Shown piece by piece: positions 8,192 to 55,636 of a DNA stretch of 64,000 bases (within the stretch, counting starts at the first letter, position 1; the number at the start of each line of letters is the position of its first letter). Source of the stretch: an uncultured Klebsiella sp. (lineage in GTDB: Bacteria; Verrucomicrobiota; Verrucomicrobiia; Limisphaerales; SXTU01); NCBI GenBank assembly GCA_964578245.1, contig CAZOCL010000002.1:1730-65729 (forward strand), written 5' to 3'. A program made the position numbers and the translations under genes. The notes under the pieces were generated by a model. It was not told the DNA's origin. It searched no databases and saw only the letters and a list, made by a program, of their open reading frames with translations.

Positions 8192-8228
8192 GCCAAAGCC
8201 GAGCCGGCGCGCGGTGACTAGTCATCGC

Positions 8229-8363
8229 TTTCCGCAGGCGACTTGTCGCCGTCATTCAGCCGTGCCGGACTTGCGCCAAGCGGCCCGCCGCGCTCACGCG
8301 AGTGCGAAAGCCGCCCTCCCCCATCCGCACCCCCCCTCGACGGCGACAAGACGCCTGCGGAAA
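8229..8363. repeat. 25-nt inverted repeat pair (one mismatch) separated by 85 nt
   Basis: tttccgcaggcgacttgtcgccgtc (8229-8253) against gacggcgacaagacgcctgcggaaa (8339-8363). It lies in the divergent intergenic region. Confidence 0.8.
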
Positions 8364-8597
8364 GCAGCGAGAACTCGCCGCACACCATAGCTGTGCGCCA
8401 ATCCGTTTTGTGCGTCCGCAACGCGGATGTTGAACATCCTGCCCCCCTTTCATTTGGTTGCGGCTGCGCATCCGTTCCGCCTCTGCGTTGAATTGCAACG
8501 GTCCGGCCAGCCGCATCCCTCAAGCCCGGAAAACGGAAGGAGGTTGCGCAAACTCCACTTGCCTTTGCGGTTTCTTCCGCAACACTCGCCGCGCGTT

Positions 8598-9770: not shown

Positions 9771-9896
9771 CCCCGTGCCGGCGGCTCGCCGCCGCCGTGT
9801 TGTAGCTTGGAACTTTTTCAGGCTGCTGTGGCCAACGGTCGGCGGCTGCAAGCCGCCGGCACGGGGCCTGGGGCTGCGCAAGCTCGGGCGGTTTGC

Positions 9897-10011
9897 CCCG
9901 GTTCGGAGTCCCGCCTTTAGGCGGCGTGTCGTGAGTGGCACCAAAACACGCGCGGATAGCCCACTGGCAATCGGGCGCCTCGCAGCCTAAAGGCGGGACT
10001 CCGAACCGGGG
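9897..10011. repeat. Perfect 27-bp inverted repeat (REP-like element, 'ggcgggactccgaac' family)
   Basis: ccccggttcggagtcccgcctttaggc (9897-9923) is the exact reverse complement of gcctaaaggcgggactccgaaccgggg (9985-10011). A third copy lies inside mfd at 13812-13835. Confidence 0.9.
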
Positions 10012-10140
10012 ACGGCTCCAAGCCGCGCGCATGCAGGTTGGACAGGGCTATCGGTCGAGAGAGCTTCCAGCCACCGCGACGCTTTTAGGCCGGCGGTTTT
10101 TCCCCTTTCAAGATTCCGGTTGCCAACCGCCGAATCCTGA

Positions 10141-10185
10141 GTTACTGCTATTTCAGTAGTAACAGAAATTACTGATACTGAAATC
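10141..10185. promoter_or_regulatory. AT-rich nested palindrome directly upstream of the 10200 gene (candidate operator)
   Basis: atttcagta (10150-10158) pairs with tactgaaat (10176-10184). gttact (10141-10146) pairs with agtaac (10158-10163). It is a strongly AT-rich island in a GC-rich context, 15 nt before the ATG. Confidence 0.35.
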
Positions 10186-10199
10186 GAGAAAGGCCTCCT

Positions 10200-10631
10200 A
10201 TGAACCCCGCTGAACCAAACCCCGCTGCCATGAACCTCATCGTCTGGACCTACGTCGTTTACCTGCTGGCGAGCGTGGCGCTCACCGTGTGGGTGGCGAA
10301 GACCCTGCACAAGAACGGCCGCATCTTCCTGGTGGACAGCTTTGGCGGGAACGAGCCGCTGGCGGACTCGGTGAACCACCTGCTCGTCGTGGGCTTCTAC
10401 CTGATGAACATCGGCTACGTGACCCTCGCCTTGAAATACGGCGTGGAGATCGCCAACACCCGTGAGGCCATCGAGACCTTCAGCACCAAGATCGGCATGG
10501 TGCTCATGGTCCTGGGCGTAATGCACTTCTTCAACCTGCTCGTCTTCACGCGGATGCGCCGCCGGGCGCTGCTGCACAAGGTCCCGCCGCCGGTCCCGCC
10601 CACAGGCAACCTGCGCCCCGTCAACCTCTGA
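10200..10631 (+). CDS. Small integral membrane protein, unknown function
   Basis: Three or four hydrophobic segments (LIVWTYVVYLLASVALTVWV, LLVVGFYLMNIGYVTL, IGMVLMVLGVMHFFNLLVF) and a Pro-rich tail. Confidence 0.55.
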   Translation: MNPAEPNPAAMNLIVWTYVVYLLASVALTVWVAKTLHKNGRIFLVDSFGGNEPLADSVNHLLVVGFYLMNIGYVTLALKYGVEIANTREAIETFSTKIGMVLMVLGVMHFFNLLVFTRMRRRALLHKVPPPVPPTGNLRPVNL

Positions 10632-10674
10632 AACCTCACGCCCGGCGCGGGCCGACCGCGCCGGGCCTCCTGCC

Positions 10675-11142
10675 ATGAAAACTCTCTACATTCTCTACGA
10701 CGACGGCTGCGCTTTTTGCCGCCGCTGCCGAGACTGGCTGGCCCAGCAGGAGTGCTTGGTGCAACTGCACCCGCTGGCACATCAGGCACCGGAGGTTTTG
10801 TGCCGCTTCCCGGAAGTTCAGTCCTACCTTCACCCCCGCGAACTGACCGTGATCAGTGACACCGGCGAGGTCTGGCATGGGCCGGCGGCGATGGTGGTCT
10901 GCCTGCACGCCATTGAGGAACACCGTAAGATCGCGGCCCGCCTGGCGGAACCAGGGCTGCTGCCGTATGCGCAGAAGGCCTTCGAGTTCCTGATGGACCA
11001 CCCTGAACAGCTCACCCCCTGGCTGCTCTACACCCCGCAGGCCACGGTGGAACAGGCCCTCCGCCACTACACCCTAACCGAGGGCCAGATGAAGCCTGGC
11101 CAAAGCGCGCGGGCAAGGCCGCCGGCCTTCCCCGTGGCGTGA
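10675..11142 (+). CDS. DCC-family thiol-disulfide oxidoreductase (DUF393-like)
   Basis: N-terminal LYILYDDGCAFCRRC, the CxxC motif characteristic of the DCC family. Confidence 0.68.
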   Translation: MKTLYILYDDGCAFCRRCRDWLAQQECLVQLHPLAHQAPEVLCRFPEVQSYLHPRELTVISDTGEVWHGPAAMVVCLHAIEEHRKIAARLAEPGLLPYAQKAFEFLMDHPEQLTPWLLYTPQATVEQALRHYTLTEGQMKPGQSARARPPAFPVA

Positions 11143-11148
11143 ATGACA

Positions 11149-11251
11149 CGTGGCGCGCGGCGTTCACGCCGCTTCACGCTGGGGCGCTTAGGCGTGAGCG
11201 GAAGCGCTGTGGTGTCTGAACGGTGAAGCGGCCTGAAGGCCGCGCGCCACG
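11149..11251. terminator. Inverted pair of 'gcggcc-tgaa-ggccgc' elements between the convergent DCC gene and mfd (bidirectional-terminator-like)
   Basis: Perfect hairpin gcggcc/tgaa/ggccgc at 11228-11243 within cggtgaagcggcctgaaggccgcgcgccacg (11221-11251). A degenerate inverted copy lies at 11149-11179. Confidence 0.4.
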
Positions 11252-11254
11252 GGC

Positions 11255-14200
11255 TCAGAGCGACAGCAGCAGTTTCTTGATCTCCTTCAGGATCGCCAGC
11301 GGCTCGGTCTTCATCAGGCGGGGGAACTTGCCGCCGAGCTGAATGAAGTCGCCGCGGCGGTGGAGCATGAGCTTGTCGCCCTTCGTCTCCACCGCATCCA
11401 GGCCGCGCTCGCCCGCCAGCAGCTTCAGCTCCGTGGCTTGCAACAGCAGTTCCACCGGCTTGGGCCACTTGCCATAGCGGTCCCGGAGTTCCCGGCCGAG
11501 CGCGTCCACGTCCGCCTTCGTCGCCGCCTGGGCAAGCTTGCGGTAGGCTTCGATGCGATGCTGCGGCTCGGGCACGTAGGCGGGGGGCAGGAAGGCGCCA
11601 GCGAGCGGCGTTTTGAGTTTCGCGTTTTGGGTTTCGAGTTCGGAGTGGTCGGGGCGGTCGGGTTGCACCCAGACGTCCGTATCTCGTGGGACTGATATGG
11701 AAGGCGTGGTGCGTGGTGCGTGGTGCGTGGTGCGTGACGGCGTTCGATGCCCTTTGGCGTCGGGCACGGAACACGGAACACGCAACACGTCCGGTTTCTC
11801 CTCCACCGGGTTCATGGCCAGGAAGTCCAGGCGCAGCACCACGTCGGTCCGCTTCGCCAGCTTCTCGCCCTTCAGCGCGGCGACGCTTTGCTTGAGCAAA
11901 TTACAGTAAAGCTCGAAGCCCACGGCGGTGATGTGGCCGCTCTGCTGGGAGCCGAGGAGGTTGCCCGCACCGCGGATTTCGAGGTCGCGCATGGCGATCT
12001 TGAAGCCGCTGCCGAGCTGCGCGTATTGCTTGATGGCGCTCATGCGCTTGCGCACGTCGGTAAGCATGCGCGCATGCCGGGGCAGCAGCAGGTAGGCGAA
12101 GGCTTGGTGCTTGTAGCGGCCCACACGCCCGCGCAACTGATACAACTGGCTCAACCCAAAGCGATCGGCGCGGTCAATGATCAGCGTGTTCGCGTTCGGG
12201 ATGTCCAGGCCGCTCTCGATGATGGTCGTGGAGATGAGCACGTCCGCCTCGCCGTTCACGAACTTGGTCATCACTTCCTCCAGTTCGTCGCCGCTCATCT
12301 GCCCGTGGCCGACGAGGATGCGGGCGTTGGGCACGAGAAGCTGCACACGGGACCGCATCACCTCGATGGTCGTCACGCGGTTGTGCAGGAAAAACACCTG
12401 GCCGCCCCGCTCCAGCTCGCGCCGGATGGCGTCGCGGATGAGCCGCTCATCGTAGTGCTCCACGATGGTCTCGACCGGCAGCCGATCCTGCGGTGGCGTC
12501 TGGATGGTGCTCATGTCCCGCGCGCCGGTGAGCGCGAGATACAGGGTGCGCGGGATGGGCGTGGCGCTGAGGGTGAGCACGTCCACATGCGTGCGCATGA
12601 GCTTGAACTTCTCCTTGTGCATCACGCCGAAGCGCTGCTCTTCGTCAATGACCACGAGGCCGAGGTCCTTGAACGTCACGTCGCTCTGCACGAGGCGGTG
12701 TGTGCCGATCACGATGTCCACCGCGCCGGCGGCGAGCTGCTCCACGACCTTGAGCTGCTCCTTGCGCGTGCGGAAGCGAGAGAGCAGCTCGACGCGCACT
12801 GGGTAGTCCGCCATGCGGTCGCGGAAGGTGTTGTAATGCTGCTGCGCCAGCACGGTGGTGGGCACGAGGATGGCCACCTGCTTGCCGCCCATCACGGCCT
12901 TGAACGCGGCGCGGATGGCCACCTCGGTCTTGCCGAAGCCCACGTCGCCGCAGATGAGGCGGTCCATGGGCTTGGGGATTTCGAGGTCGTGCTTGGCGTC
13001 CTCGATCGCGCGGTGCTGGTCGGGCGTCTCCTCGAAGAGGAAGGACGCCTCGAACTCGCGCTGCCACGGCGTGTCGGGGCCGAAGGCGTAGCCGGGCTGC
13101 GTGGCGCGCTTGGCCTGGATGGCGAGCAGCTCGGAGGCGAGGTCGCGCACGGCGCGTTCGGCCTGCTGCTTGGTCTTCTCCCAACGCTTGCCGCCGAGCG
13201 TGTTCAGCGGCGGACGCGCCTTGCCTGCGCCGACGTATTTGCCGACCAGGTGCGCCTCGGTGATGGGCACGTAGAGCTTCGGCGGCTCGCGGTCGGTGTC
13301 GGACGGCGCGTATTCGATGACGAGGCATTCCTGGCCGGACTCGGTCGCAGCAGGCTGGTCCGGTTCGAGCAGGGTGCGGTCCTTGCGACCGCCCACGGGC
13401 AGCACTTTCAGGCCACGGAAACGCCCGATGCCGTGCTGGAGGTGGACCACGTAATCGCCTTCCTCAAGTTCGCTGAAATCAATGTCCAGGGCGGAACGCG
13501 CCGCGATGGCGTGCGCCGACTTCATGCGGCGGGGGCGCTGGACTTTGTAACGGCCGAAGATCTCGGCGTCGGTCACCACGACGAACTTCGCGGCCTCGCA
13601 GAGGAAGCCGCGGGCGAGCGTGCCGAGGTGGACGGAGGGGAATGGGAGCGGGGATGGGGTCTGGCGTTTGGGGTCTGGGGCGGAGGCGGCCGACTTACGT
13701 AAGCGTGGCCGTCCTCCCTCACCCCGGCCCTCTCCCGCTGGGAGAGGGGGGACATCGTCCGCGCTAGAGCTTGCTGGCCGCGCTTGTGACTCAGCGGCGA
13801 TTGGCGCGCTCGCCGCCTGAAGGCGGGACTCCGAACTAGGGATGGTGCCCAAGCCCATTTCCTGCCACAGCTCGCCGAACCGCTGGGCCTCCCCATCGTT
13901 GTTGCACAACACATGGACCGCGAAGCCCGTGCGCAGCCAGCGCTGGAGCTGGAGGAAGAATTCCCGGCGCTGGGCCTCGGCGACTTCCGGCGCGGAGGGG
14001 CGGTCGGCGATGGGGCGGAAGGCTTCGAGGGAGGAGAGGGAGAGGGAGGAGTGATTAGTAATTAGTGAAGAGTGGGGGCCACGGGGCGAGGGATGCGCGG
14101 ACTGCGACAGCGCCCTGCTTTCTCCCTCGCCCCCATCGGGGGAGAGGGCTGGGGTGAGGGGGCGGGCATCAGCAGCAAGAAGATCGTCAGGATTATCCGA

Positions 14201-15391
14201 ACCCTCCAACTCAGTCTCCGCTGCCAACACTTCATCCTCCAGCATGGCCAGCACGGTCAGCTTGCGGCGGAGCAGTTCCTCGCGCAGCTCTGCCCACGTT
14301 GCGAAGAACGGATCGTTCTCGGGCACCATCTCGCCGTAATCCTCGGCGTGACGCTCGATGGCGGCGGGGTCGCAGAGGAGGACGATGGCGTCGTCGGGGA
14401 GATAATCGAGCAGCGTCGCCAGTGGCGCGTGGCCTTCAGGCCGCTTCGACGTGGTGGCTTCGGGCGTTTCCGAGGCTGCTGGAGCCGACTGGACTCCGTC
14501 CGGTGAAGCGGCCTGAAGGCCGCGCGCCACGCCTACCTCGCGCTTGAGCACTCCGAGTTCCCCAGCGGGTGGTAGGGTGATCTGGTCCAGCTCCCCGCCG
14601 TCGCGCGAGATTTGGGTGACGGGATCGAAGGTGCGCAGGGATTCAAGTTCATCGCCGAAGAATTCCAACCGCACTGGCCAGGGGCTGGTGAGCGGAAAGA
14701 CGTCCACGATGCCGCCGCGCAGGGCGATGTCGCCCTTCGCCGAGACCTGCGCCTCGGAGTCGTAGCCGTTGTCCTCCAGCCACTCGATGAGGTCCATGGG
14801 CTCGATGCGGTCGCCGCGGCGCAGGGTGCGCATGCGGTCGGCCAGCATGGCGGGCGGGAAGGTGCGCTGGAGGAGGGCGGTGATGCTGGTGGTGAGCAAT
14901 GCGGAACGCGGAGTGCGGAATGCGGAATCAAGGCCGGGCGCTTGCGGGCTCGGATTCCGCACTCCGCCTTCCGCACTCCGCATTAACTCCACCAACGTTT
15001 CGAGGCGTTCACTGATGACGTCCGCGTGAGGCAGCTTGTCCTGATGCGGCAGGATTTCCCAGGCGGGGAAGAAGAGGGGGCGCGGATGCTGGATGCTGGA
15101 TGCTGGATGCTGGATGGCCGAGGAGTTCCGCGGTCCGCTGTGGCCGAGCCAGGTTTCCAGGTCTTGCTGGAGGACTTCCTGTGCCTTGAGATTCTCCGCT
15201 ACGAGCACTACTGGACGGGCGGGAAGTTCCTGATGCAGCCAGGCAGCGAGAAAGGCATGAGCGGAGCCGGTGATCCCCTCACACGTCAATGCGCCGCCCG
15301 ACTCCACACGCCGCAGCAGGGCCTGCGCGGCGGGAGCTTGGCGGAGCCGCGTGAACAGATGGTCGAACATACGGGCCGAAGCCCGTTTCAA
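11255..15391 (-). CDS. mfd: Transcription-repair coupling factor Mfd, expanded by in-frame repeat insertions
   Basis: [11 protein letters not shown] Walker [11 protein letters not shown] box, helicase C-terminal motifs (LRGRVGR) and the CarD-like region [12 protein letters not shown]. It is 1378 codons; the start may instead be MFDHLF at 15370. Confidence 0.95.
11704..11789. repeat. Heptamer arrays inside mfd: (gcgtggt)x4, a spacer, then (cacggaa/cacgcaa)x3
   Basis: 11704-11736 is gcgtggt repeated. 11765-11789 is cacggaa cacggaa cacgcaa cacg. They are translated in Mfd as ...[16 protein letters not shown]... Confidence 0.85.
13714..13751. repeat. 'ccctcacccc...ccctctccc-gct-gggagaggg' hairpin element inside mfd
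   Basis: Read directly from the sequence. It encodes ...[13 protein letters not shown]... in Mfd. An inverted copy lies at 14118-14163. Confidence 0.8.
13812..13835. repeat. Copy of the 'ccgcc-tgaa-ggcgggactccgaac' element inside mfd
   Basis: ccgcctgaaggcgggactccgaac belongs to the same family as the 9897-10011 arms. It is translated as SESRLQAAS. Confidence 0.85.
14118..14163. repeat. Inverted copy of the 'gggagaggg...ggggtgaggg' element inside mfd
   Basis: ctttctccctcgcccccatcgggggagagggctggggtgaggg, translated as [15 protein letters not shown]. Confidence 0.8.
14501..14533. repeat. Second copy of the 11221-11251 hairpin element, this one inside mfd
   Basis: cggtgaagcggcctgaaggccgcgcgccacg is identical over 31 nt to 11221-11251. 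It is translated as [11 protein letters not shown]. Confidence 0.9.
14901..14983. repeat. Long imperfect hairpin of 'gcggaat/gcggagt' heptamers inside mfd
   Basis: The arm gcggaacgcggagtgcggaatgcggaatc (14901-14929) faces gattccgcactccgccttccgcactccgcat (14952-14983). It is translated as [21 protein letters not shown]. Confidence 0.85.
15084..15115. repeat. Tandem heptanucleotide array (ggatgct) of about 4.5 units inside mfd
   Basis: ggatgctggatgctggatgctggatgctggat, translated on the minus strand as [14 protein letters not shown]. Confidence 0.9.
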
Positions 15392-15435
15392 CCGCAGGCT
15401 GGCATTCGCGTGGTGAAAGCGTCAAGGGGTGGTTA

Positions 15436-15592
15436 AATTCCAAGTTTCAAATCCCAAATTCCAAAGAAGTTCCAAACTCCAAGCTCCAAGTGGGCTTGCC
15501 GTTCGATCAGGTCGGTGAGCTTCCCGGACGCCTGGCAGATTGGAATTTGAAACTTGGAGCTTGTTTGGATTTTGGAACTTGGAATTTGGACT
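15436..15592. repeat. Foldback element built from 'ccaaa(t/c)tccaa' units in the mfd/hisA divergent intergenic region
   Basis: The left arm (15436-15490) and right arm (15539-15592) are imperfect reverse complements flanking a unique spacer of about 48 nt. Related units occur at 11610-11645, 19997-20024 and 24735-24767. Confidence 0.8.
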
Positions 15593-15646
15593 TTCCCCCC
15601 GCGATTGCCACTCGACACCCGCCCTGCCCCGCTGAAAACTTCCCGC

Positions 15647-16661: not shown

Positions 16662-16662
16662 C

Positions 16663-17037
16663 ATGCAAAAATCACTCAACATCGAGGAGGTCCTCGAATT
16701 CATTCTCAGCTACGATAAACGATATGACATTGAGGCCTATTATTTCGTCCGCGAGGCGTTGGGACTGGCGCAGAAGCGACTCAGCAGAGCAGCATCCCAA
16801 GGGCCACAGCATGTGACCGGGAAGCAATTGCTTGAAGTGATCCGCACCCATGCCTTGGAGCGGTTTGGACCAGCAACTCTGGAGGTGCTGCGGGGATGGG
16901 GTGTGCGCCGCTGCGAGGACTTCGGCGAAATCGTTTTTAACATGGCGGAAACTTCGTTGCTCGGGACGACGGAGAACGACAGTCGTGAAGACTTCAAAGA
17001 CGGTTATGACTTCCGTGAGGCTTTCGGCAAGCCGTAG
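16663..17037 (+). CDS. Minf_1886-family protein (Verrucomicrobia/Planctomycetes-restricted), paralog 1
   Basis: MQKSLNIEEVLEFIL...AYYFVREAL...WGVRRCEDFGEIVFNM...DSREDFKDGYDF. Its GC content is visibly lower than that of its neighbour. Confidence 0.7.
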   Translation: MQKSLNIEEVLEFILSYDKRYDIEAYYFVREALGLAQKRLSRAASQGPQHVTGKQLLEVIRTHALERFGPATLEVLRGWGVRRCEDFGEIVFNMAETSLLGTTENDSREDFKDGYDFREAFGKP

Positions 17038-17054
17038 TCTGCAATACAGCATCC

Positions 17055-17507
17055 ATGCAAAAATCACTCAACATCGAGGAAGTCCTCGAAACCATCGTCG
17101 CCAAGGACACCCGCTATCCGCGCGAGGCCTACTACTTCGTCCGCGAGGCACTGGATGTGGCGCAGAAGAAGTTCACCCGGGCCGGAGGCAAGGCAGCGAT
17201 CAAGGCGGACAAGGACAAGCCCGCCCAGCATGTCAGCGGCCAGCAGTTGCTCGAAGGCATCCGGGAGCACGCGCTGGAGCAGTTCGGCCCGCTCACGCTG
17301 ATGGTGCTGGAGGAATGGGGCGTGCGGCGCTGCGAGGACTTCGGCGAGATCGTCTTCAACATGGTGGAAAGCTCGCTGCTCGGAAAGACCGACAACGACA
17401 GCCGCGAGGATTTCAAGGGCGGGTATGAATTCTTCGAGGCGTTCCGTAAGCCGTATCTGCCGAAGGGGAAGCAGACGGTAAGGGTCGCTACCGAGTCAGC
17501 AACTTGA
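17055..17507 (+). CDS. Minf_1886-family protein, paralog 2
   Basis: It has the same architecture as 16663..17037 plus a 26-aa longer internal loop and a C-terminal tail. The first 26 nt of the two CDSs are identical. Confidence 0.75.
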   Translation: MQKSLNIEEVLETIVAKDTRYPREAYYFVREALDVAQKKFTRAGGKAAIKADKDKPAQHVSGQQLLEGIREHALEQFGPLTLMVLEEWGVRRCEDFGEIVFNMVESSLLGKTDNDSREDFKGGYEFFEAFRKPYLPKGKQTVRVATESAT

Positions 17508-17946: not shown

Positions 17947-20583
17947 TTGCCGCCAACCCTCCGGCTGGCTACCTTCCGCCCCCTGACTATGGCTGTTGCC
18001 CGCGCAAATCATCATCGCTCGACGAGTTCCTCCACTTCGCTGCCCGCCATCCCGCCTGGCACCACCGTCACCACGCTGGACAACGGCCTGACCGTCATCC
18101 TGCGGGAGGACCGCTCCGCGCCGGTCGTGTCCGCCCAGGCGTGGGCGCAGACGGGGAGCGTGCATGAGGGGCGCTGGCTCGGCGCAGGCCTGAGCCATGT
18201 GCTGGAGCACATGCTCTTCAAGGGCACGGCCACGCGGCCGCCGGGGAAGATTGACCAGGAGGTGCAGGACGCCGGCGGCTACATGAACGCCTACACCAGC
18301 TTTGACCGGACGGTGTATCACATTGACGCCCCGAACACCGGGGCGCGCATCGCCGTGGATGTGCTCTGCGACATCATGCAGAACGCGACGCTGCCGGAGG
18401 ACGAGCTGAAGAAGGAACTCGACGTCATCCGCCGTGAGATGGACATGGGCCATGACGACCCCGGCCGCCGCACGGGCCGCCGGCTCTTCGAGACGGCCTA
18501 CACGCGCAGCCCGTATCGCTTCACAGTGATCGGCTATCGCGACATCTTCGACACGCTCAAGCGCGAGGACATCGTGAGCTACTACCGCGAGCGTTACGCG
18601 GCGAACAATCTGTTCTTTGTCGTCGTGGGTGACATCGTGGCCGCGGACGTCCTGGCGCAGATCAAGGCGGCCTGGGCGAAGTCCCCTTCCCGCGCGATCC
18701 CGCCGATGGTGCTGCCGGAAGAGCCCTCGCAGGCGGCCTCGCGCGAGGTCATCGAGGAAGCGCCCATCGAACTCGGCCACTTTCACTTTTCCTGGCACAT
18801 CCCCGGCGTGCGGCACGCGGACATTCCCGCGCTCGACGTGCTGGCCACCCTGCTGGGCAGCGGGCGCAGTTCGCGGCTCTTCCAGAGCGTCCGCGAGAAG
18901 CAGGCGCTCGCGCACTCCGCCGACGCGTGGACCTACAACCCCGGGCTCCCGGGACTCTTCGGCATGAGCGGCGTGGTGGATGCGGACAAGTTCACCGCCG
19001 CGCGCGACGCGATGCTCGCCGAGGTGGAGAAGATGAAGGCCAAGCCCGTGGCGAAAGCCGAGCTGGCCAAGGCCGTGAAGCAATTCACTGCGGGCACGCT
19101 GGCCACGCGCAAGACGATGGCCGGACAGGCGCAGGACCTCGGCGGCAACTGGCTGGCCGCGAGCGACCTGAACTTCTCCCAGCGCTTCCTCGACGGCGTG
19201 CGACGGCTCACGCCCGCGGACCTCCAGCGCGTCGCCCGCACCTATCTCACGGCGGAGAACCGCACCCTCTTCGCGCTGCTGCCCGAGGGTGCCACCCCGA
19301 AGCGCGAGTTGAGCGTCGAGGTCAGCAGCCGCAGCGACATCCGCAAGTTCGCTTTGCCGAGCGGCCTGCGCCTGCTGGTGAAGGAAGAGCACCGCCTGCC
19401 GTTCGTTTACTTCCGCGCTGGCTTGCGCGGCGGCGTGCTGGCCGAGACGGCGGCGAACTGCGGCGCGAGTTCCATGCTCACGCGGCTGATGATGAAGGGC
19501 ACCAAGACCCGCACCGCCGAAGCGCAGGCGACCGAGATCGAGAGCCTCGGCGGCAGCCTGGACACCTACAGCGGCAACAACAGCATCGGCGTGACGGCGG
19601 AAGTCTTGCGCGAGGATTTCGCCACCGGGCTTGAGCTGGTCGTGGACCTGCTGCTCAGCCCGGCCTTTCCGAAGGCCGAGCTAGAGCGCGAGCGCGAGAT
19701 CCAGCTCGGCAACATCCGTCACCAGCGCGACGAGCTGCTCACGAGCTGCTTCAAGCTGATGCGCCGCTCCCTCTTCGGCGACACGAGCTACGGTCTCGAT
19801 TCCCTCGGCACCGAGGCGACGGTCAAGGCGATGCAAGTCGCCGGGCTCGCTGCGATGCACAAGCAGCTCGTCACACCGGACAACTGCGTGCTGGCCATCT
19901 ACGGTGCGGTGGAGACAAAGAAGGTGGAGGCGGCGGTGAAACGCGCCTTCGCCAAATGGAAGGCCGTTCCATCCAGCCCGTCCGTCGTCGCAAACCCCAA
20001 ACTCCAAACTCCAAACTCCAAACTTGCCCCTCGCCGTGCCTCCGACACGCGCGACAAGAAACAGGCCGTGCTCGCCATCGGCTTCCCGGGCACGACGATG
20101 CAGCATGAGGACCGCTACGCGCTGGACCTGATCCAGGAGGCGTGCAGCGACATGGGTTCGCGGTTGTTCACGCGCATTCGTGAGCGGCTCGGTCTGGCCT
20201 ACTATGTCGGGGCGCAGCATCTGGCGGGATTGGTGCCGGGCTACTTCGCGTTCTATTGCGGCACGTCGCCGGAGAAGGCGGCGCTCGTCGAGAAGGAGTT
20301 GCTGGCGGAGGCTGATTTGCTGCGCACGGAAGGCTTGAGCGAGGAAGAACTCAAGCGAGCGAAGGCCAAGATCATTGGGCAGAAGAAGATCTCCCGGCAG
20401 GACCTCGGTGGCCAGGCGATGCTGCACGCGCTCGATGAACTCTATGGACTCGGCTACGCGCATCACGAGCAGGACGACGCGCATTACGAGGCGGTGACGC
20501 TGGCGCAGGTGAAGACCGTCGCGGCGCGGTATTTCATCCCTGAGGCAAGTGCGGTGGCGGTGATCAGCGGGCCGGTGGCGTAA
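17947..20583 (+). CDS. Two-module M16 (pitrilysin/insulinase) family zinc peptidase
   Basis: HVLEHMLFKGT (HxxEH) zinc motif in the N-terminal half and a second M16-like half without it. An alternative start is MAVARA at 17989. Confidence 0.9.
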   Translation: MPPTLRLATFRPLTMAVARANHHRSTSSSTSLPAIPPGTTVTTLDNGLTVILREDRSAPVVSAQAWAQTGSVHEGRWLGAGLSHVLEHMLFKGTATRPPGKIDQEVQDAGGYMNAYTSFDRTVYHIDAPNTGARIAVDVLCDIMQNATLPEDELKKELDVIRREMDMGHDDPGRRTGRRLFETAYTRSPYRFTVIGYRDIFDTLKREDIVSYYRERYAANNLFFVVVGDIVAADVLAQIKAAWAKSPSRAIPPMVLPEEPSQAASREVIEEAPIELGHFHFSWHIPGVRHADIPALDVLATLLGSGRSSRLFQSVREKQALAHSADAWTYNPGLPGLFGMSGVVDADKFTAARDAMLAEVEKMKAKPVAKAELAKAVKQFTAGTLATRKTMAGQAQDLGGNWLAASDLNFSQRFLDGVRRLTPADLQRVARTYLTAENRTLFALLPEGATPKRELSVEVSSRSDIRKFALPSGLRLLVKEEHRLPFVYFRAGLRGGVLAETAANCGASSMLTRLMMKGTKTRTAEAQATEIESLGGSLDTYSGNNSIGVTAEVLREDFATGLELVVDLLLSPAFPKAELEREREIQLGNIRHQRDELLTSCFKLMRRSLFGDTSYGLDSLGTEATVKAMQVAGLAAMHKQLVTPDNCVLAIYGAVETKKVEAAVKRAFAKWKAVPSSPSVVANPKLQTPNSKLAPRRASDTRDKKQAVLAIGFPGTTMQHEDRYALDLIQEACSDMGSRLFTRIRERLGLAYYVGAQHLAGLVPGYFAFYCGTSPEKAALVEKELLAEADLLRTEGLSEEELKRAKAKIIGQKKISRQDLGGQAMLHALDELYGLGYAHHEQDDAHYEAVTLAQVKTVAARYFIPEASAVAVISGPVA
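19997..20024. repeat. Tandem heptamer (ccaaact)x4 inside the M16 peptidase gene
   Basis: ccaaactccaaactccaaactccaaact, translated as PKLQTPNSKL in the linker between the two M16 modules. Confidence 0.9.
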
Positions 20584-24108: not shown

Positions 24109-24480
24109 ATGTCCGCCAGCCCGTCCACGCGGCTGACGCTCGGGGCCGATCAACGCCTCAAACAGACGCGCGACTTCGCGCGCCTCAAGAAGCAGGGGCG
24201 ACGGCTCGCGCGCGGTTGTGTGCTGATGAACTGGGCGGAACTCCCCGTCACTGGCCGGTCACGCCTCGGCGTGGTGGCCGCCAAACGCATCGGCAATGCC
24301 GTGGTCCGCAGCCGGGCCAAACGGCTGATGCGCCAGGTCTTCCGGCTGCACCAGCATGACCTGCGCGTGCCGGCCGAAGTGGTGCTGGTGGCACGGGACT
24401 CCATTGCGGACAAGGCTTTTGCGGAAGTGGAACGCGATTATCTCGCGGCGCTCCGAGCTGCGGGACTGCTCAAGACTTGA
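24109..24480 (+). CDS. rnpA: Ribonuclease P protein component
   Basis: It sits immediately after rpmH. It is basic and shows the pattern LKQTRDFARLKKQGRR...RLGVVAAKRIGNAVVRSRAKRLMR. Confidence 0.9.
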   Translation: MSASPSTRLTLGADQRLKQTRDFARLKKQGRRLARGCVLMNWAELPVTGRSRLGVVAAKRIGNAVVRSRAKRLMRQVFRLHQHDLRVPAEVVLVARDSIADKAFAEVERDYLAALRAAGLLKT

Positions 24481-24848
24481 ACCACCGGCCAGCCGGCGGC
24501 CAATCAGTGAATCTCGCCCAACATATCCTGCTCGCCGCGCTCCGGCTCTACCGGTGGTTCGTCTCGCCGGCGATCACCCTGCTCTTCGGGGCGGCGTGCC
24601 GCTACGAGCCGAGCTGCTCGGTGTATGCCATGGAGGCGGTGCAGCGCCATGGGGCGATGCGCGGTGGCTGGCTCGCAGCCAGGCGCCTGGCCCGCTGCCA
24701 GCCGTGGGCCGGCTGCGGCTGGGACCCTGTCCCCGTTTCGAGTTTTGAGTTGAGAGTTCCGAGTTCGCGTCCGGAGGCCGTTGCTTCCGGGGACGCCGAC
24801 ACGCACCACGCGGCACGCAACCCATCCGTTTCCATTGCTGCTCACTAG
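24477..24848 (+). CDS. yidD: Membrane protein insertion efficiency factor YidD with a repeat-derived C-terminal extension
   Basis: LRLYRWFVSPA...CRYEPSCSVYAMEAVQRHG...RRLARCQPW..GCGWDPVP is the YidD core. The TTG start overlaps the rnpA stop (an alternative is the GTG at 24507). About 45 extra residues follow. Confidence 0.85.
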   Translation: MNHRPAGGQSVNLAQHILLAALRLYRWFVSPAITLLFGAACRYEPSCSVYAMEAVQRHGAMRGGWLAARRLARCQPWAGCGWDPVPVSSFELRVPSSRPEAVASGDADTHHAARNPSVSIAAH

Positions 24849-34689: not shown

Positions 34690-34987
34690 CTGCCTCAGGG
34701 GCGCATCTCAGTTTCTTGCAAGGCGTCTCCGGTCGAGCCGAGAAACCCGGAGGGTTTCAAGGTGAATAGCCGTGGGTGAAATCCACGAGGGGGGCGGTTT
34801 TCCGTCTCCACCCTGAAAGGGTCGAACGCGCGCGTATCAGAGGTGTTGCATTCAACCCCTCCCGGGGTTGTGGCCCATGACGCGCTCACCGTGGGTTTCA
34901 CCCACGGCTATTCACATGACACCCTCCAAGGTGTTTGAAGACTGTGCCAGCACGCCTGCAAGAAATCGAGTTGCGCCCCTGCCTCAG
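34690..34987. mobile_element. Foldback (MITE-like) element of about 300 bp with imperfect terminal inverted repeats of about 100 bp
   Basis: The inner arms are perfect: gtgaatagccgtgggtgaaa (34762-34781) against tttcacccacggctattcac (34896-34915). The outer arms caggggcgcatctcagtttcttgca and tgcaagaaatcgagttgcgcccctg are imperfect. No transposase is present. Confidence 0.7.
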
Positions 34988-40464: not shown

Positions 40465-40761
40465 GGCGCACACCGTGGGGGGCAGGACGCGCTCACTCCG
40501 AGCGCCGAAGCGGGCGGACACCGCCGGCCCGGAGCGCGGCCTGCAGGCCGCAGAAACGTGCGCCGGCCCGGGGTGGTTCGAACGCACTTCTCGCGTCGGA
40601 GCTTTCTGCGGCCTGAAGGCCGCGCTGCACGGGCGCGAAGTTCCGCCGGCTCGTGGAGGCCCATACCAGCGTGGGTCGAAATTCTTGTGTTCGCGAGTGT
40701 CATCCTGACCAGATGCGGAAAAGCAGGCGCAGACCGGAGTAAAATGGCAAAGCAAAACCAC

Positions 40762-48814: not shown

Positions 48815-51800
48815 ATGAGTGCCATCCGCACAGCAGGTGAGACGCCCGGCGCAAGCCGGGTGACGCGCTGGGCCATCGCGCTCCTGCTGGGCGCGCTGGC
48901 GCACACGGCCGCCTTGGCGCAGACCACGGTCACGACGCTCAGCGGCGGGCCAAGCTCCACGCGGCCGGGCTTTGCCGGTTCTGATGACGGGGATCTGACG
49001 TCCGTGGCCCAGTTCAATCTGCCGGGTGGCGTGGTGTTCGAACCCTCGGGCAGCATCCTCTGGCTGGCGGATACCGGTAACAACACGATCCGTCGGCTGG
49101 ATCTCACCGCCGGGACCGCGTCCACCCTCAGCACGAATTCCGTGGGTGGCATCCTCCTCTTCAACGCGCCGGTGGACGTGGCGGTGGACGGCAACACGAA
49201 CCTTTACATCCTGACGCGGGACGATGGCCGCATCCATCAACTCGACCTGCGTAACATTGCTTTCGGGGCCACCGTGACGCCGATCACTCCCGCCGGCACC
49301 TTCACCGCGCCCAACGCGCTGGCGTTCGATGGCGTCGGCAACCTGTATGTCGTCGAGGAGGCCGGCGCGCTGCGGCGGGTGGCACTTTCCAATTTCACGG
49401 TCAGCGCCAGCCTCTTGCCCGTCGGCAGCTTCGTCACGCCGCGGGGCGTGGAGGTGCTCGACAGTGGCAAGATCGCCGTGAGCGATGCCAGCCGGCACAC
49501 CATCCACCTGGTGGATCCGAACACGCTCACCGTCACTTTCCTGGCCGGCGGCACGAACACTCCCGGCACGGCCCTGGGCACCGGCGCAGCCGCCCGCTTC
49601 AATTCGCCGCATCATCTGGCGAAGGCCGGAAACAACACGCTCGTGGTGGCGGACCGGGGCAACCATCAGGTGCGTTTGGTGGACACCACGGGTGCCACGA
49701 GCGTGCTTTACGGCGTGCTGTCCAATTTCTGGGTGAACTTCCCTGATCCCTCCATCTACCCGGGCTGGGCGGATGGCTCGGCGCAGTTCGCGGAATCCCG
49801 CCTGCCGACCGGTGTGGTGGTGGATGGCAGCGGCACCACCTACGTGACCGAGCAGTATTATCACCTCATCCGCAAGGTGACCGGTTCCGGGCTGACCGGC
49901 CCCACCGGCGTGGGCAGCGGCTCGGGCGGCTCCAGTGCGTTGAACCCGCCTTCGCTGGCCTTCACCCCGAACTCCGGTTATTTCCCGCTGGGCACCACGG
50001 TCACGGTGACCAGTTCCAGCACGAACGTGTTCTACACGGCGGATGGCACCGAGCCGACCACCAACAGCACGCGGGTCATCATCACCGGCGGCACCGGCAC
50101 CATCTTGTGGCAGAATTCCACCAACGACCTCACCGGCCTGCGCGTGGCGGCGTTTGCGACCAGCGGCACGAACAGTGCGAGCACGAACATCACTGGCATC
50201 GCGTCCACCGCCACGACCCTGGGCGTGCCCGCTGGCCTGAACACCAACCTGTTCGCGGGCGTGGGGGCGCGCATCGTGGTGCCGCTCGTGCTGAACCTCC
50301 GCACCAACGATTCGCTGCGCACGCTCCAGTTCCGGGTCGAAGTCACCCCTAACGGCGCGGCCCCGATGATCGGAGCGACGTTCGGTGCGCAGGCCATCGG
50401 CACGAATGATTTCATCACGGTCACCACTGGGGGCGCGGCCAGCTTCAGTTCGCTGGCCTATACCCTGGGCACCACGCGCGGGCTGGTAGTTTCCTTCCTG
50501 GGCACCAACGCAAACTTGCTGGTGAACCGCTTCGCGGTCGCTGCATTGCTTACGGTGCCCATTCCCGCCGGTGCCGCGCAGGGCAGCACCTACAACATCG
50601 ACATCCTCCAGCCCTCCGGCACGGTCGATGGCCAGCAGAATGTGGTCGCCATCGCGCCCGCCGGCACCCGGGTCATCACCGTCACGAACCTGGCTTACCG
50701 CGTCGGCGACACCTCGCCGGGTGGCTGGTATAACGCGGGCGACTTCGGCAACGGCAATCTCGACAACGCGGACGTCAACAACGCCTTCAACGCCGCCGCC
50801 GGCATCCGCCTGCCGTTCGCGTTCAGTGATGCGTTCGACGCGATGGACGCCTTCCCGGAGGACACTGCTGGCACGGTGGGCGGCGACGGCCAGATCCGGT
50901 TCCTGGACTGGCAGATCATCCTCCTGCGCGCGCTGCGCCTGAACACCAACCCGGCGATCGGCGTGAGCACCACGAACTGGTCGCGCATGTGGTCCGGCGG
51001 TGTGCGGGTGACCACGGTGACCAATCTCCTTTCCCCGGCTGGCCGGCGTCCCACTGCCCTCCCGCCGCCGGGCGATGTCTGGAACCGGCAGGCCGCCATC
51101 GGGGCCGTGCCACTGGAGAATATCCCGCCCGGAACGACCGTGAACGTGCCGGTCTTTGCGCGGGTGGCTCCCGGTGCAGCCATCTCCGGCCTCCAGTTTC
51201 GCGCGCTGGTGAACCCGTCGGAGGGGGCGCCCGCACTCGCCCAGCCACCACAGTTCATCGCGTTCAGCCTGCCGTTCCAGCCCGCCTTCCTCTCGGGCCA
51301 GACCAACGCCATCGCCGCCGCGTGGAATGTCGGCCAGCTTGCCTTGCCGGCACTGAGCAGCAACCTGCTCGGCTTCGTGCGCTTCACGGTCCCAGTCGCC
51401 GCTCCAGCAGGTTCGAGTTACGCGGTAAGTTTTGCGAACGCGGACGGCTCGCCGGACTTCTTCACCCAATACAGCTTCGAGACGCGCGGGGCGTCGGTGT
51501 GGGTGTCACGGTCTGCGCCGGGGCCGCTCTCCATCATTTCGGATGAGTGGAAGATCGCCTTCTTCGGAAGCGCGACGAATCCCGACGCCGCCGATCTGGC
51601 CGACCCCGACGGCGACGGAGTGCCGAACGCGCTGGAATACCTCGCGGGCACCGATCCGACCAGCGCCACCTCCCGCGTGCAGCTCGCCCCGGGCGGCTTC
51701 CGCAATGGCGGCAGTGATCTGGCGCTCCAGCTTCTGAGCGCCCCAGGCAAACTCTACGTGCTGGAAAGCGCGACCACTCTTGGGAATCCCGTCTGGTCGC

Positions 51801-51898
51801 CGGTGCTCACCAATCTCGGCGACGGCAATTTGAAGGAATTTATCCAGGCGGTGACCCCGGGCGGGCCACGCTACTACCGGCTGAAGGTGCTGCCGTGA
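48815..51898 (+). CDS. Giant secreted NHL-repeat protein with cohesin-/dockerin-like modules and a TSP3-like C-terminus
   Basis: Signal peptide and six NHL-like blades (e.g. FNSPHHLAKAGNNTLVVADRGNHQVRLVD). Also FYTADGTEPT, GDFGNGNLDNADV/GGDGQIRFLD Ca-loop pairs, DPDGDGVPNALEY, and the ending PRYYRLKVLP. Confidence 0.8.
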   Translation: MSAIRTAGETPGASRVTRWAIALLLGALAHTAALAQTTVTTLSGGPSSTRPGFAGSDDGDLTSVAQFNLPGGVVFEPSGSILWLADTGNNTIRRLDLTAGTASTLSTNSVGGILLFNAPVDVAVDGNTNLYILTRDDGRIHQLDLRNIAFGATVTPITPAGTFTAPNALAFDGVGNLYVVEEAGALRRVALSNFTVSASLLPVGSFVTPRGVEVLDSGKIAVSDASRHTIHLVDPNTLTVTFLAGGTNTPGTALGTGAAARFNSPHHLAKAGNNTLVVADRGNHQVRLVDTTGATSVLYGVLSNFWVNFPDPSIYPGWADGSAQFAESRLPTGVVVDGSGTTYVTEQYYHLIRKVTGSGLTGPTGVGSGSGGSSALNPPSLAFTPNSGYFPLGTTVTVTSSSTNVFYTADGTEPTTNSTRVIITGGTGTILWQNSTNDLTGLRVAAFATSGTNSASTNITGIASTATTLGVPAGLNTNLFAGVGARIVVPLVLNLRTNDSLRTLQFRVEVTPNGAAPMIGATFGAQAIGTNDFITVTTGGAASFSSLAYTLGTTRGLVVSFLGTNANLLVNRFAVAALLTVPIPAGAAQGSTYNIDILQPSGTVDGQQNVVAIAPAGTRVITVTNLAYRVGDTSPGGWYNAGDFGNGNLDNADVNNAFNAAAGIRLPFAFSDAFDAMDAFPEDTAGTVGGDGQIRFLDWQIILLRALRLNTNPAIGVSTTNWSRMWSGGVRVTTVTNLLSPAGRRPTALPPPGDVWNRQAAIGAVPLENIPPGTTVNVPVFARVAPGAAISGLQFRALVNPSEGAPALAQPPQFIAFSLPFQPAFLSGQTNAIAAAWNVGQLALPALSSNLLGFVRFTVPVAAPAGSSYAVSFANADGSPDFFTQYSFETRGASVWVSRSAPGPLSIISDEWKIAFFGSATNPDAADLADPDGDGVPNALEYLAGTDPTSATSRVQLAPGGFRNGGSDLALQLLSAPGKLYVLESATTLGNPVWSPVLTNLGDGNLKEFIQAVTPGGPRYYRLKVLP

Positions 51899-51911
51899 AA
51901 TTGCGAATTGC

Positions 51912-55571: not shown

Positions 55572-55636
55572 AGCTGCCGAAGCGCAGCGGCGAGTGGCCC
55601 GGCCAGGCTTGAACTTTGTTTGACGCAGCCCGAAAC

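Follow-up and report, generated by a model that had tools for sequence, protein, structure and literature searches.

Several kinds of repeat DNA have been described within or between bacterial genes. The Rickettsia palindromic elements (RPEs) are selfish palindromes of approx. 150 bp, which are inserted in frame in many conserved genes and encode one conserved peptide each (Ogata et al. 2000, summarised in PMC10969869). The short tandemly repeated repetitive (STRR) sequences of cyanobacteria and other heptameric simple sequence repeats (SSRs) of bacteria are intergenic and under-represented in open reading frames (ORFs) (PMC2670836, PMC4692102). Mfd, or transcription-repair coupling factor (TRCF), is built of modules joined by long flexible linkers, and its D3 module is lineage-specific and not conserved (PMC7864632, PMC7385628). 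Here we describe an mfd gene that carries palindromic and heptameric repeat DNA in frame at several such positions. The gene lies in a stretch of 64,000 nucleotides from a soil or freshwater Verrucomicrobiota bacterium (contig CAZOCL010000002.1 of assembly GCA_964578245.1, positions 1,730 to 65,729), which was analyzed as a whole and is called the window below.

Counted from a TTG start, the mfd ORF is intact over 1378 codons. In the public record of the same sequence (P0001; 1371 aa) the gene is annotated as starting seven codons further in, with the ATG at 15370. The Pfam domains of Mfd were found in the correct order: UvrB_inter (residues 190-277), CarD_TRCF_RID (642-720), DEAD (789-949), Helicase_C (988-1093) and TRCF (1266-1343). 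The protein thus possesses the ordered set of UvrB-homology module, RID (the domain that interacts with RNA polymerase, RNAP), superfamily 2 translocase core with the TRG motif region and TRCF domain that defines the family. The protein aligned to solved structures of Mfd, from M. smegmatis, M. tuberculosis and E. coli, with E-values of 1e-201 to 1e-209; its residues 586-1175 did so without interruption, and the helicase motifs were found untouched. By those of its homologs that carry names, the organism is assigned to the Verrucomicrobiota, order Limisphaerales (Pedosphaera-like). A single intact ORF is present in 77 of 80 mfd orthologs. The idea that broken mfd genes break at repeat arrays was rejected, as the breaks in the three other orthologs (L053, L061, L070) are located within the helicase core, away from the arrays; their assemblies likely contain indel errors or Ns. 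None of the 80 orthologs displayed a frameshift allele at an array, so that mfd does not present itself as a phase-variable contingency locus. In model bacteria mfd is conserved and not strictly essential, and the term essential gene, which an earlier note on this stretch had applied to it, is therefore too strong.

The length excess over E. coli Mfd (1148 aa) amounts to 248 aa, which are confined to seven discrete sites (S1 to S7) and leave a core of approx. 1130 aa. A first alignment of all 117 orthologs masked the insertions since unrelated inserts were aligned together. The sites were resolved by alignment with E. coli Mfd (from NC_000913), compact orthologs and the full-length sequences of 70 orthologs in GTDB genomes, the combination of compact orthologs and occupancy-based blocks being the remedy for the masking. 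Six sites (S1-S5 and S7) are occupied by repeat DNA, and S6 is small. Among the 70 Limisphaerales orthologs the insert lengths at the seven sites range from 0 to 229 aa. The earlier note had described at least nine insertions in an over-long but intact ORF. Both the length and the intactness are real, all nine patches are genuine repeats or palindromes according to Tandem Repeats Finder (TRF), inverted-repeat analysis and self-comparison of the window, and they are located between conserved blocks. They are not nine independent insertions: they fall into the six occupied sites, with the small S6 in addition, and several are halves of one element.

Two classes of inserted DNA are present, namely palindromic doublets of the type of repetitive extragenic palindromes (REPs) and of REP doublets forming hairpins (REPINs), which belong to at least three families (A, B and C), and tandem arrays with a 7-nt period. 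S1 and S2 are N-terminal and S3 is C-terminal to the UvrB-interaction domain defined by Pfam. The heptamer array of S1, which was recorded by TRF at 15084-15116 with period 7 and 100% matches, enters after E. coli residue ~64, and this site measures 0 to 51 aa in the 70 orthologs. S2 follows E. coli residue ~100. Its arms (GCGGAGT/GCGGAAG/... and ATTCCGC/ACTCCGC/...) enclose a 25-nt loop. S3 contains two inverted arms with the core GCGGCCTGAAGGCCGC and a 57-nt spacer between them, and is translated into ARGLQAAS...KRPEGHAP. Its arm at 14501-14531 is identical at 31/31 positions to 11221-11251 downstream of the mfd stop codon (E 9.5e-13), which confirms the exact match reported before. The partner arm at 14422-14447 had been overlooked, S3 having been listed as 14501-14533 instead of the full doublet at 14418-14533.

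S4 is situated between D1b and a D3-like unit. It contains a family-C element (TCACCCCAGCCCTCTCCCCC-GAT-GGGGGCGAGGGAG), which is followed by a heptamer in decay (ACTAATY) and by a tract rich in CT; the low-complexity sequence with the decayed heptamer covers 14027-14075. A small folded unit (residues 456-516) is flanked by S4 and S5. The latter corresponds to the D3-RID linker region and reaches its present length only in the window and in the 93%-identical ortholog. It consists of one family-B REP arm (TTCGGAGTCCCGCCTTCAGGCGGC), a spacer and a family-C element (CCTCTCCC-AGC-GGGAGAGG GCCGGGGTGAGGG) in the orientation opposite to that of the S4 copy. S6 harbors no repeat in this genome and extends to up to 86 aa in orthologs. 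S7 combines a heptamer-armed hairpin (CGTGTTC x3 ... CACCACG x4.7), a stretch conserved in the clade and a 7/14-nt array (CGAAACC CAAAACG ...). TRF recorded GCGTGGT x4.7 and CACGGAA x3.6 at 11704-11789 and a 14-nt array at 11608-11640. The heptamer arrays comprise at least three tandem 7-nt units, often in inverted, hairpin-forming pairs as judged by TRF and fold prediction: single arrays occur at S1 and in part of S7, inverted pairs at S2, in S7 and in the intergenic region 15435-15594.

Table 1. Location and content of the mfd gene, its seven insert sites and the related extragenic elements in the window. Folds are predictions. The DNA positions given for S1, S2, S4 and S7 correspond to residues 88-103, 138-164, 391-455 and 1203-1261, which is slightly more than the variable residues listed.
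Feature	Position	Strand	Mfd residues	Content or evidence	Predicted fold
mfd (transcription-repair coupling factor)	11255..15391	-		ORF, Pfam domains, structure alignment	
S1	15084..15130	-	88-99 (12 aa)	heptamer array (ATCCAGC) x4.7	RNA without structure
S2	14899..14984	-	138-159 (22 aa)	inverted heptamer-array hairpin (TRF, inverted repeat I3)	-61.8 kcal/mol, z -8.1
S3	14418..14533	-	288-318 (31 aa)	family-A REP doublet (inverted repeats I21, I6)	-74.8 kcal/mol, z -6.5
S4	14027..14221	-	391-443 (53 aa)	family-C element, decayed heptamer and CT-rich tract	
S5	13649..13845	-	517-581 (65 aa)	family-B arm and inverted family-C element (repeats D14, I9)	
S6	13349..13378	-	672-681 (10 aa)	loop inside the RNAP-interacting domain	
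S7	11608..11790	-	1203-1257 (55 aa)	linker from the helicase module to the C-terminal TRCF domain	hairpin, z -2.3
Extragenic family-A REP doublet	11149..11251	.		inverted repeat I11	-67.9 kcal/mol, z -8.05
Extragenic family-B REP doublet	9896..10011	.		inverted repeat I4; 36-nt arms, 92% complementary	-84 kcal/mol, z -9.7
Extragenic family-A-like REP doublet	40506..40653	.		inverted repeat I1	-95.7 kcal/mol
Extragenic heptamer-armed hairpin (AAATTCC)n ... (TTTGGAA)n	15435..15594	.		TRF	-50.6 kcal/mol, z -3.1

The palindromic families occur inside as well as outside the gene. Family A, with the arm core GCGGCC-TGAA-GGCCGC, has copies at S3, after the mfd stop codon and at 40506-40653. Family B (CCGCCTGAAGGCGGGACTCCGAAC) is represented by the doublet at 9896-10011 and by the single arm in S5 (13812-13835), which matches both doublet arms (23/24 to 9902-9925 and 20/21 to 9985-10005), as expected from its previous assignment to the same family as 9897-10011. 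Family C (TCACCCCRGCCCTCTCCC, loop, GGGAGAGGG) is found in S4 (14118-14163) and S5 (13714-13751) in the form of inverted copies that agree at 20/21 positions. In related genomes it forms intergenic inverted pairs approx. 110 nt apart, and a count over the related loci gave 12 copies in mfd, 9 between genes, where they often form inverted pairs, and 1 in another coding sequence (CDS). Like RPEs, these families are thus dispersed both outside genes and inside ORFs, A and B within the window and C in the related loci.

The extragenic family-A doublet, directly 3′ of the mfd stop codon, separates two convergent genes, and a family-A copy is located at the same place in the 93%-identical ortholog (L003). 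The doublet at 40506-40653 is upstream of the real start of a nucleotidyltransferase gene; the Pfam domain of the corresponding ORF starts at aa 143 only. Between mfd and a divergent hisA-like gene lies the heptamer-armed hairpin. Its array includes position 15554, at which the hisA-like ORF starts by mechanical prediction, so that the annotated N-terminus of this gene is probably repeat-derived. The REP doublets I4, I11 and I21 were predicted to fold into long hairpins of -68 to -96 kcal/mol with z-scores of -5 to -10. A search of the elements against Rfam returned no family, only sub-threshold look-alikes of microRNA hairpins.

It had been proposed that the patches match intergenic DNA of the same window. 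At the sequence level this is true of approx. five patches only. Matches to other DNA of the window are strong for four patches, namely 14501-14533, 13812-13835 and the pair 13714-13751 and 14118-14163, the members of which match only each other. Those at 11610-11645 and 11704-11789 are weakly similar to 24735-24819 (E 0.11 and 1e-4; inverted repeat I24). No sequence relative was found elsewhere in the 64-kb window for 14027-14075, 14901-14983 and 15084-15115, whose likeness to intergenic arrays is one of type only. Heptamer arrays are shared between mfd and intergenic DNA as a class only; relatives at the sequence level outside the gene exist only for the REP-doublet families.

Base composition distinguishes the inserts from the rest of the gene. 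The inserts have a flat GC profile over codon positions 1/2/3 (0.73/0.65/0.65), compared with the strong coding profile of the core (0.70/0.41/0.875), and their translations are rich in Ser, Pro and Ala and poor in hydrophobic residues. By this measure the inserted DNA is of a non-coding type and is read incidentally. A model computed with AlphaFold for residues 1-640 (94 sequences; predicted template modelling score 0.80) contained low-confidence blocks only at 81-100, 141-160, 291-320, 391-450 and 521-580, which coincide with S1 to S5 and are predicted to be coil. The predicted local distance difference test (pLDDT) scores were 49-66 for S1, 39-61 for S4 and 41-52 for S5. The mapping on a structure suggested in the earlier note thus places S1 to S5 in low-pLDDT coil, outside or between Pfam domains and hence at predicted loop positions of the kind used by RPEs, and leaves residues 586-1175 unbroken against the solved Mfd structures.

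The reading frame is preserved throughout. Eight indels distinguish the CDS from that of its 93%-identical ortholog (L001/L003), and all of them are multiples of three (3, 45, 3, 3, 33, 3, 3 and 3 nt). Indels and local divergence between both genes are concentrated in the repeat patches, while the remaining gene is 93-100% identical. The inserts are free of stop codons, and the elements use differing frames and orientations, with one to five of the six frames open per element. A special design keeping the elements open in many frames was considered and rejected because this number is not clearly above the expectation from GC content. Together with the intact ORF here and in 77/80 orthologs, the restriction to multiples of three corresponds to the behavior of RPEs, in which the frame is kept and the host protein remains under selection.

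Comparison with orthologs revealed that the sites and their contents differ in age. With respect to the 93%-identical ortholog, the window contains an additional 45-nt block comprising the left arm and the loop of S2, and the right-arm unit of S2 differs between the two in every copy (ATTCCGC in the window, AATCGGC in the ortholog). The ortholog in turn has an additional 33-nt hairpin in S4 (at ~14153) and, in S5, a second family-B arm in place of the family-C element. All right-arm units of S7 are CACCACG in the window and CAACACG-like in relatives. Other contents are older. The family-A doublet of S3 was also detected in L004, L040 and many orthologs of only 60% identity from both major clades of a neighbour-joining tree, and the contents of S4 and S7 are common to orthologs of 72-77% identity. 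In sister lineages S3 is occupied by a different doublet (VAGFSLR...RNLKVATT), by heptamer hairpins or by a family-C palindrome of -179 kcal/mol, and in a few clade members (e.g. L005) it is empty. Most orthologs carry a short heptamer array with highly varied units at S2. In the eight orthologs with a full S2 hairpin the two arms covary: 84% of the cells are paired compared with 71.5% after shuffling, and the covariation score of 0.333 (shuffled: 0.157) was reached in 0/500 shuffles, slid controls giving values of at most 0.09.

Shared occupancy of the sites combined with differing contents indicates that site occupancy is old and the contents are young. Judged from their distribution in the alignments, the inserts at S3, S4 and S7 are ancestral within the family, though Mfd proteins from other phyla lack them, as do some members of the clade. 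The term colonisation is consequently appropriate in so far as repeat DNA has entered in frame; it does not describe a recent event at every site, since the contents of S3, S4 and S7 are shared with orthologs and other parts are very recent. Ancestral sequence, which had been named as a potential objection, accounts for several inserts within the family and not beyond it.

Some orthologs carry larger inserts. In L049 (mfd at 10001-14152) the -179 kcal/mol palindrome at S3 consists of family-C copies inside mfd. At S5 of L043 (mfd at 10001-14728) an insert of 229 aa contains several copies of elements, which results in an Mfd of 1576 aa, and the longest Mfd orthologs in the protein database measure 1686 aa (P0031). 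Several of the verrucomicrobial mfd loci (L003, L031, L049, L054, L076 and others) bear public titles such as Klebsiella, Akkermansia muciniphila, Chitinophaga pinensis or Bifidobacteriaceae; these records of metagenome-assembled genomes are probably mislabelled submissions.

The density of repeat DNA in mfd was compared with that of its surroundings. The 64-kb window holds 11 period-7 arrays of three or more copies, six of which fall into the 4.1 kb of mfd, more than chance would give. In the 70 orthologs, period-7 coverage reached 53.6 nt/kb in the variable segments compared with 2.0 nt/kb in the core; period 14, the second harmonic of 7, gave 43.5 and 1.49 nt/kb, and other periods from 3 to 15 gave approx. 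0-1 nt/kb. When mfd orthologs were analyzed with up to 10 kb of flanking DNA on each side, period-7 arrays numbered 124 in mfd (268 kb), 20 in intergenic DNA (132 kb) and 13 in other CDS (848 kb), with hairpins (stems of at least 11 bp) at 0.67, 1.03 and 0.10 per kb, respectively. Five of the non-mfd arrays are actually within frameshifted mfd genes, and many of the 124 mfd arrays are inherited and do not represent independent events. Per kb, the array density of mfd is approx. 40 times that of the 753 neighbouring genes. None of these genes (49 of them of at least 800 aa) contains more than two interior hairpins, the mean for mfd being 2.5. In a comparison with the DNA outside mfd, made within each of 70 loci, matches occurred at 0.77 hits/kb for the variable segments and at 0.029/kb for the core, a 26-fold difference.

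The heptamer arrays as such are not peculiar to mfd. A scan of metagenomes for (CAATCGG)x3 matched at least 120 contigs. The 80 contigs examined had GC contents of 40 to 72%, and none of their arrays was within mfd (0/80). Many had an inverted partner array, corresponding to the heptamer-armed hairpin design, and a few arrays were in frame in other proteins. As ORFs measured from stop to stop become long by chance when the DNA is rich in GC, the array-bearing metagenome ORFs are, apart from a few, putative genes. Specificity of the arrays for mfd was rejected on these grounds and the claim limited to density per gene. Heptamer arrays are a general genomic class, and by these counts mfd is their preferred coding host, not their main home.

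Among the few convincing array-bearing genes of the metagenomes is one for a protein with a RibD-like C-terminus. Two independent contigs (L101 1160-1180 and L156 4957-4977) carry the heptamer array in frame at the same position of this protein (...VAPV(Y/S)K-SAIGNRQSAI-DLR(R/W)LLKKLGA...). At three further loci (L099 4161-4181, L106 629-649 and L134 1368-1388), a larger conserved palindrome, GTAGCAGCCGACGTGAGGAGGCTC ... GAGCCTCCTCACGTCGGCTGCTAC, carries (AATCGGC)n in its loop. Its translation gives frequent SRREEA ... SLLTSAAT peptides, and several Mfd orthologs likewise have SLLTSAAT in their S6 inserts, which suggests that the SLLTSAAT palindromes with heptamer arrays are composite mobile palindromes.

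Within the window, only two genes other than mfd carry such material. The array (CAAACTC) x4.9 at 19991-20024 is in frame in an M16 peptidase of 878 aa (ORF 17947-20583, plus strand), where it is translated as NPKLQTPNSKL; it is the only other clear array within a CDS of the window. The yidD-like ORF 24477-24848 (plus strand; Pfam YidD at aa 16-85), directly upstream of yidC, ends in a 38-aa C-terminal tail (VSSFELRVPSS...DTHHAARNPSVSIAAH). The DNA of this tail (24735-24819) consists of a heptamer array and an inverted relative of the GCGTGGT array of S7, so that the ORF is extended and not interrupted.

We propose, with a probability of roughly 0.7, that seven loop and linker positions of Mfd act as sinks for non-coding repeat DNA of the genome, which is kept in frame in the form of disordered loops while its contents turn over. 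As Mfd consists of folded modules on flexible linkers, extra disordered residues would be harmless at a few positions. REP doublets may arrive by transposition, or extragenic copies may be transferred into the gene by gene conversion. The heptamer arrays would belong to the same class as the heptamer hairpins between genes of many environmental bacteria, and might grow or turn over in place by slippage rather than arrive as mobile insertions. Selection would retain only stop-free versions with a length divisible by three, resulting in Ser/Pro/Ala-rich disordered loops devoid of a function of their own and in undisturbed folded domains and motor. Subsequent changes would take place at the DNA level, by slippage and homogenisation of arrays, compensatory changes in arms, conversion with outside copies and replacement by new palindromes. 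A potential partner for conversion is at hand in the identical arm 3.2 kb away after the stop codon, here and in L003. Occupancy of a site would thereby be long-lived and sequence turnover quick. Since loss of one 7-nt unit shifts the frame, arrays in a CDS could shrink only by 21-nt steps and may persist longer than intergenic ones. Existing palindromes might in addition attract new ones; some insertion sequences target REP hairpins.

Several observations weigh against this proposal. Translation of the insert loops is deduced from the frame constraint on the sequence, and the comparison genes were the 753 neighbours of mfd and not those of whole genomes. For the heptamer arrays, copies identical in sequence are absent outside mfd, which makes their insertion indistinguishable from growth in place. 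No transposase of the RAYT (REP-associated tyrosine transposase)/Y1 type was found among the approx. 40 window ORFs scanned, mobility being deduced from the dispersed copies only. Each mfd site is occupied more often than an average intergenic spacer, for which tolerance alone offers no obvious explanation. Nor does tolerance obviously explain the covariation of the S2 arms. Both observations leave room for a function at the nucleic-acid level.

An alternative, unlikely as a complete account, is that the inserts grew where they are, by slippage of heptamer seeds and local inverted duplication without any mobile DNA, their likeness to intergenic repeats reflecting the same mutational process everywhere. 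The heptamer units fit this idea, as they differ at nearly all sites and between nearly all orthologs and lack identical copies outside; the four units in the right arm of S7 changed together from CAACACG to CACCACG, and heptameric SSRs are over-represented in large GC-rich bacterial genomes, which has been ascribed to polymerase slippage (PMC4692102). Growth in place fails for the REP doublets. The 31/31 copy of an arm 3.2 kb away, the family-B doublet at 9896-10011 and the intergenic pairs of family C are foreign to such a process, and so are the unrelated palindromes at S3 of sister lineages and the wholly different element at 13700-13760 in the 93%-identical ortholog. For part of the heptamer material growth in place is probably true, and to this extent it is contained in the sink model proposed above.

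Slightly less likely still, the inserts might be functional nucleic-acid elements that cause pausing of RNAP or ribosomes at domain boundaries, mediate an Mfd-dependent feedback on the transcription of mfd itself, as stalled polymerases are removed by Mfd, or act as frameshift-prone switches of an evolvability factor. The compensatory changes that preserve pairing of S2 in eight orthologs, occupancy of the sites across the order despite sequence change, the outlier position of mfd among 753 neighbouring genes and the very stable hairpins (-62 and -75 kcal/mol) would all be in line with a function. However, covariation of arms is expected of selfish palindromes too, half of the S2 hairpin is gone from the 93%-identical ortholog without any other change, and sites are empty in some clade members (S3 in L005). 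Element type, orientation and reading frame vary between lineages, and no Rfam family was matched. The lack of a frameshift allele at any array in 80 orthologs also weighs against such a function. A more specific version, in which hairpins and arrays regulate mfd itself, either as pause sites cleared by Mfd (negative feedback) or as slippage tracts switching Mfd, a mutation-modulating factor, off in part of the population, is more doubtful again, and a regulatory role of the intragenic hairpins appears unlikely.

That the gene is decaying, or that the inserts are introns, inteins or bypassed segments absent from the protein, is prompted only by the unusual length and by stable hairpins that could in principle promote bypass, and is refuted as far as a sequence can do so: the ORF is intact here and in 77/80 orthologs, the core has a strong coding signature and high conservation, Pfam and Rfam revealed no signature of inteins or introns, and a constraint on frame and stop codons makes sense only if ribosomes read through the inserts, which argues against pseudogene, intron, intein and bypass alike.

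Further repeats were noticed in the window. Located 3′ of a deoxyhypusine-synthase-like gene is a cluster resembling bacterial interspersed mosaic elements (BIMEs), in which a palindrome at 9771-9866 (27-nt arms, 93% complementary) stands beside the family-B doublet. Long inverted repeats of other families, both apparently intergenic, were found at 8206-8386 (48-nt arms, 79% complementarity) and 34762-34915 (35-nt arms, 86%). A 165-nt (55-aa) unit is present in six tandem copies of 61-77% identity at 55799-56724, and also at 49159-49357 and 52299-52778, within the very large ORFs of 48815-58150; it looks like an array of protein repeat domains rather than a DNA element. A unit of approx. 390 nt is tandemly duplicated at 16662-17455 (76-77% identity), giving rise to two small paralogous ORFs of 124 and 150 aa without a Pfam match. 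Dispersed duplicates of 87-88% identity, approx. 1.4-1.7 kb apart, are located at 35101-35187/36759-36845 and 36506-36629/37907-38068, and the ORFs in this region have no Pfam match.

If our interpretation is correct, palindromic and simple-repeat DNA can colonise conserved genes in frame not only where genomes are reduced and intracellular, as in Rickettsia, but also in the large genomes of free-living Verrucomicrobiota, and repeats with a unit length indivisible by three can persist for a long time inside a CDS. The seven insertion-tolerant positions would provide a natural map for the placement of tags and the design of deletions in Mfd, which currently attracts interest as an evolvability factor. 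Caution would also be needed in annotation, since the numerous low-complexity stretches rich in Ser and Pro, and the short proteins listed as hypothetical, would in these phyla be translated repeat DNA. Should the concentration in mfd hold true genome-wide, it would raise the question of a special relation between structure-forming DNA and a gene whose product handles stalled polymerases, and with it of a possible new principle of regulation.

Among the known systems, the REPINs (Bertels and Rainey 2011, PMC3116915) and BIMEs correspond to the doublets in structure. Two inverted palindromic REP units (GCGGCC-TGAA-GGCCGC) are separated by a 45-57 nt spacer and form one long hairpin, near-identical copies are dispersed, and compensatory variants (GGCC/GGCC and GGCG/CGCC) occur. 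In contrast to the extragenic location of REPINs, the elements at 14418-14533 and 13649-13845 are inside the mfd CDS and, to judge from the frame, translated. REPINs are also accompanied by a cognate RAYT flanked by REPs and number hundreds of copies per genome; among the approx. 40 ORFs scanned in the 64 kb analyzed here, no RAYT was found.

The arrays share with STRR sequences and heptanucleotide SSRs the 7-bp units, the copy number of approx. 3-5, the capacity to form hairpins, the abundance in large genomes and the strong variation in length and sequence between close relatives (PMC2670836, PMC4692102, PMC4679880). They differ in being in frame within a conserved gene of another phylum, though 7 is not a multiple of 3, and in consisting of many site-specific units, as opposed to the few genome-wide units of STRR sequences. 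Like known insertions in Mfd, the inserts fall at flexible or poorly conserved linkers, while the motor core and the RNAP-interacting domain are conserved (PMC7864632, PMC7385628). Unlike the D3 module, they form no folded domain and consist of non-coding-type repeat DNA that differs even at 93% identity.

In the literature we found no description of such elements in Verrucomicrobia. By behavior, RPEs are the closest parallel, as both are dispersed palindromes between and inside conserved genes that are in frame, compatible with the fold and leave the host protein intact (PMC10969869). Membership by homology is unlikely. The hosts of RPEs are intracellular bacteria with reduced genomes, as compared with large genomes of free-living members of another phylum here; in place of a single conserved peptide we found at least three REP-doublet families and heptamer arrays, read in several frames and both orientations; and seven sites of one gene are affected, recurring across an order. 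The inserts of mfd are thus RPE-like in-frame repeat DNA, new with regard to phylum and element class, and set apart by their 7-nt period, the load of seven sites in one gene and their recurrence throughout the order.

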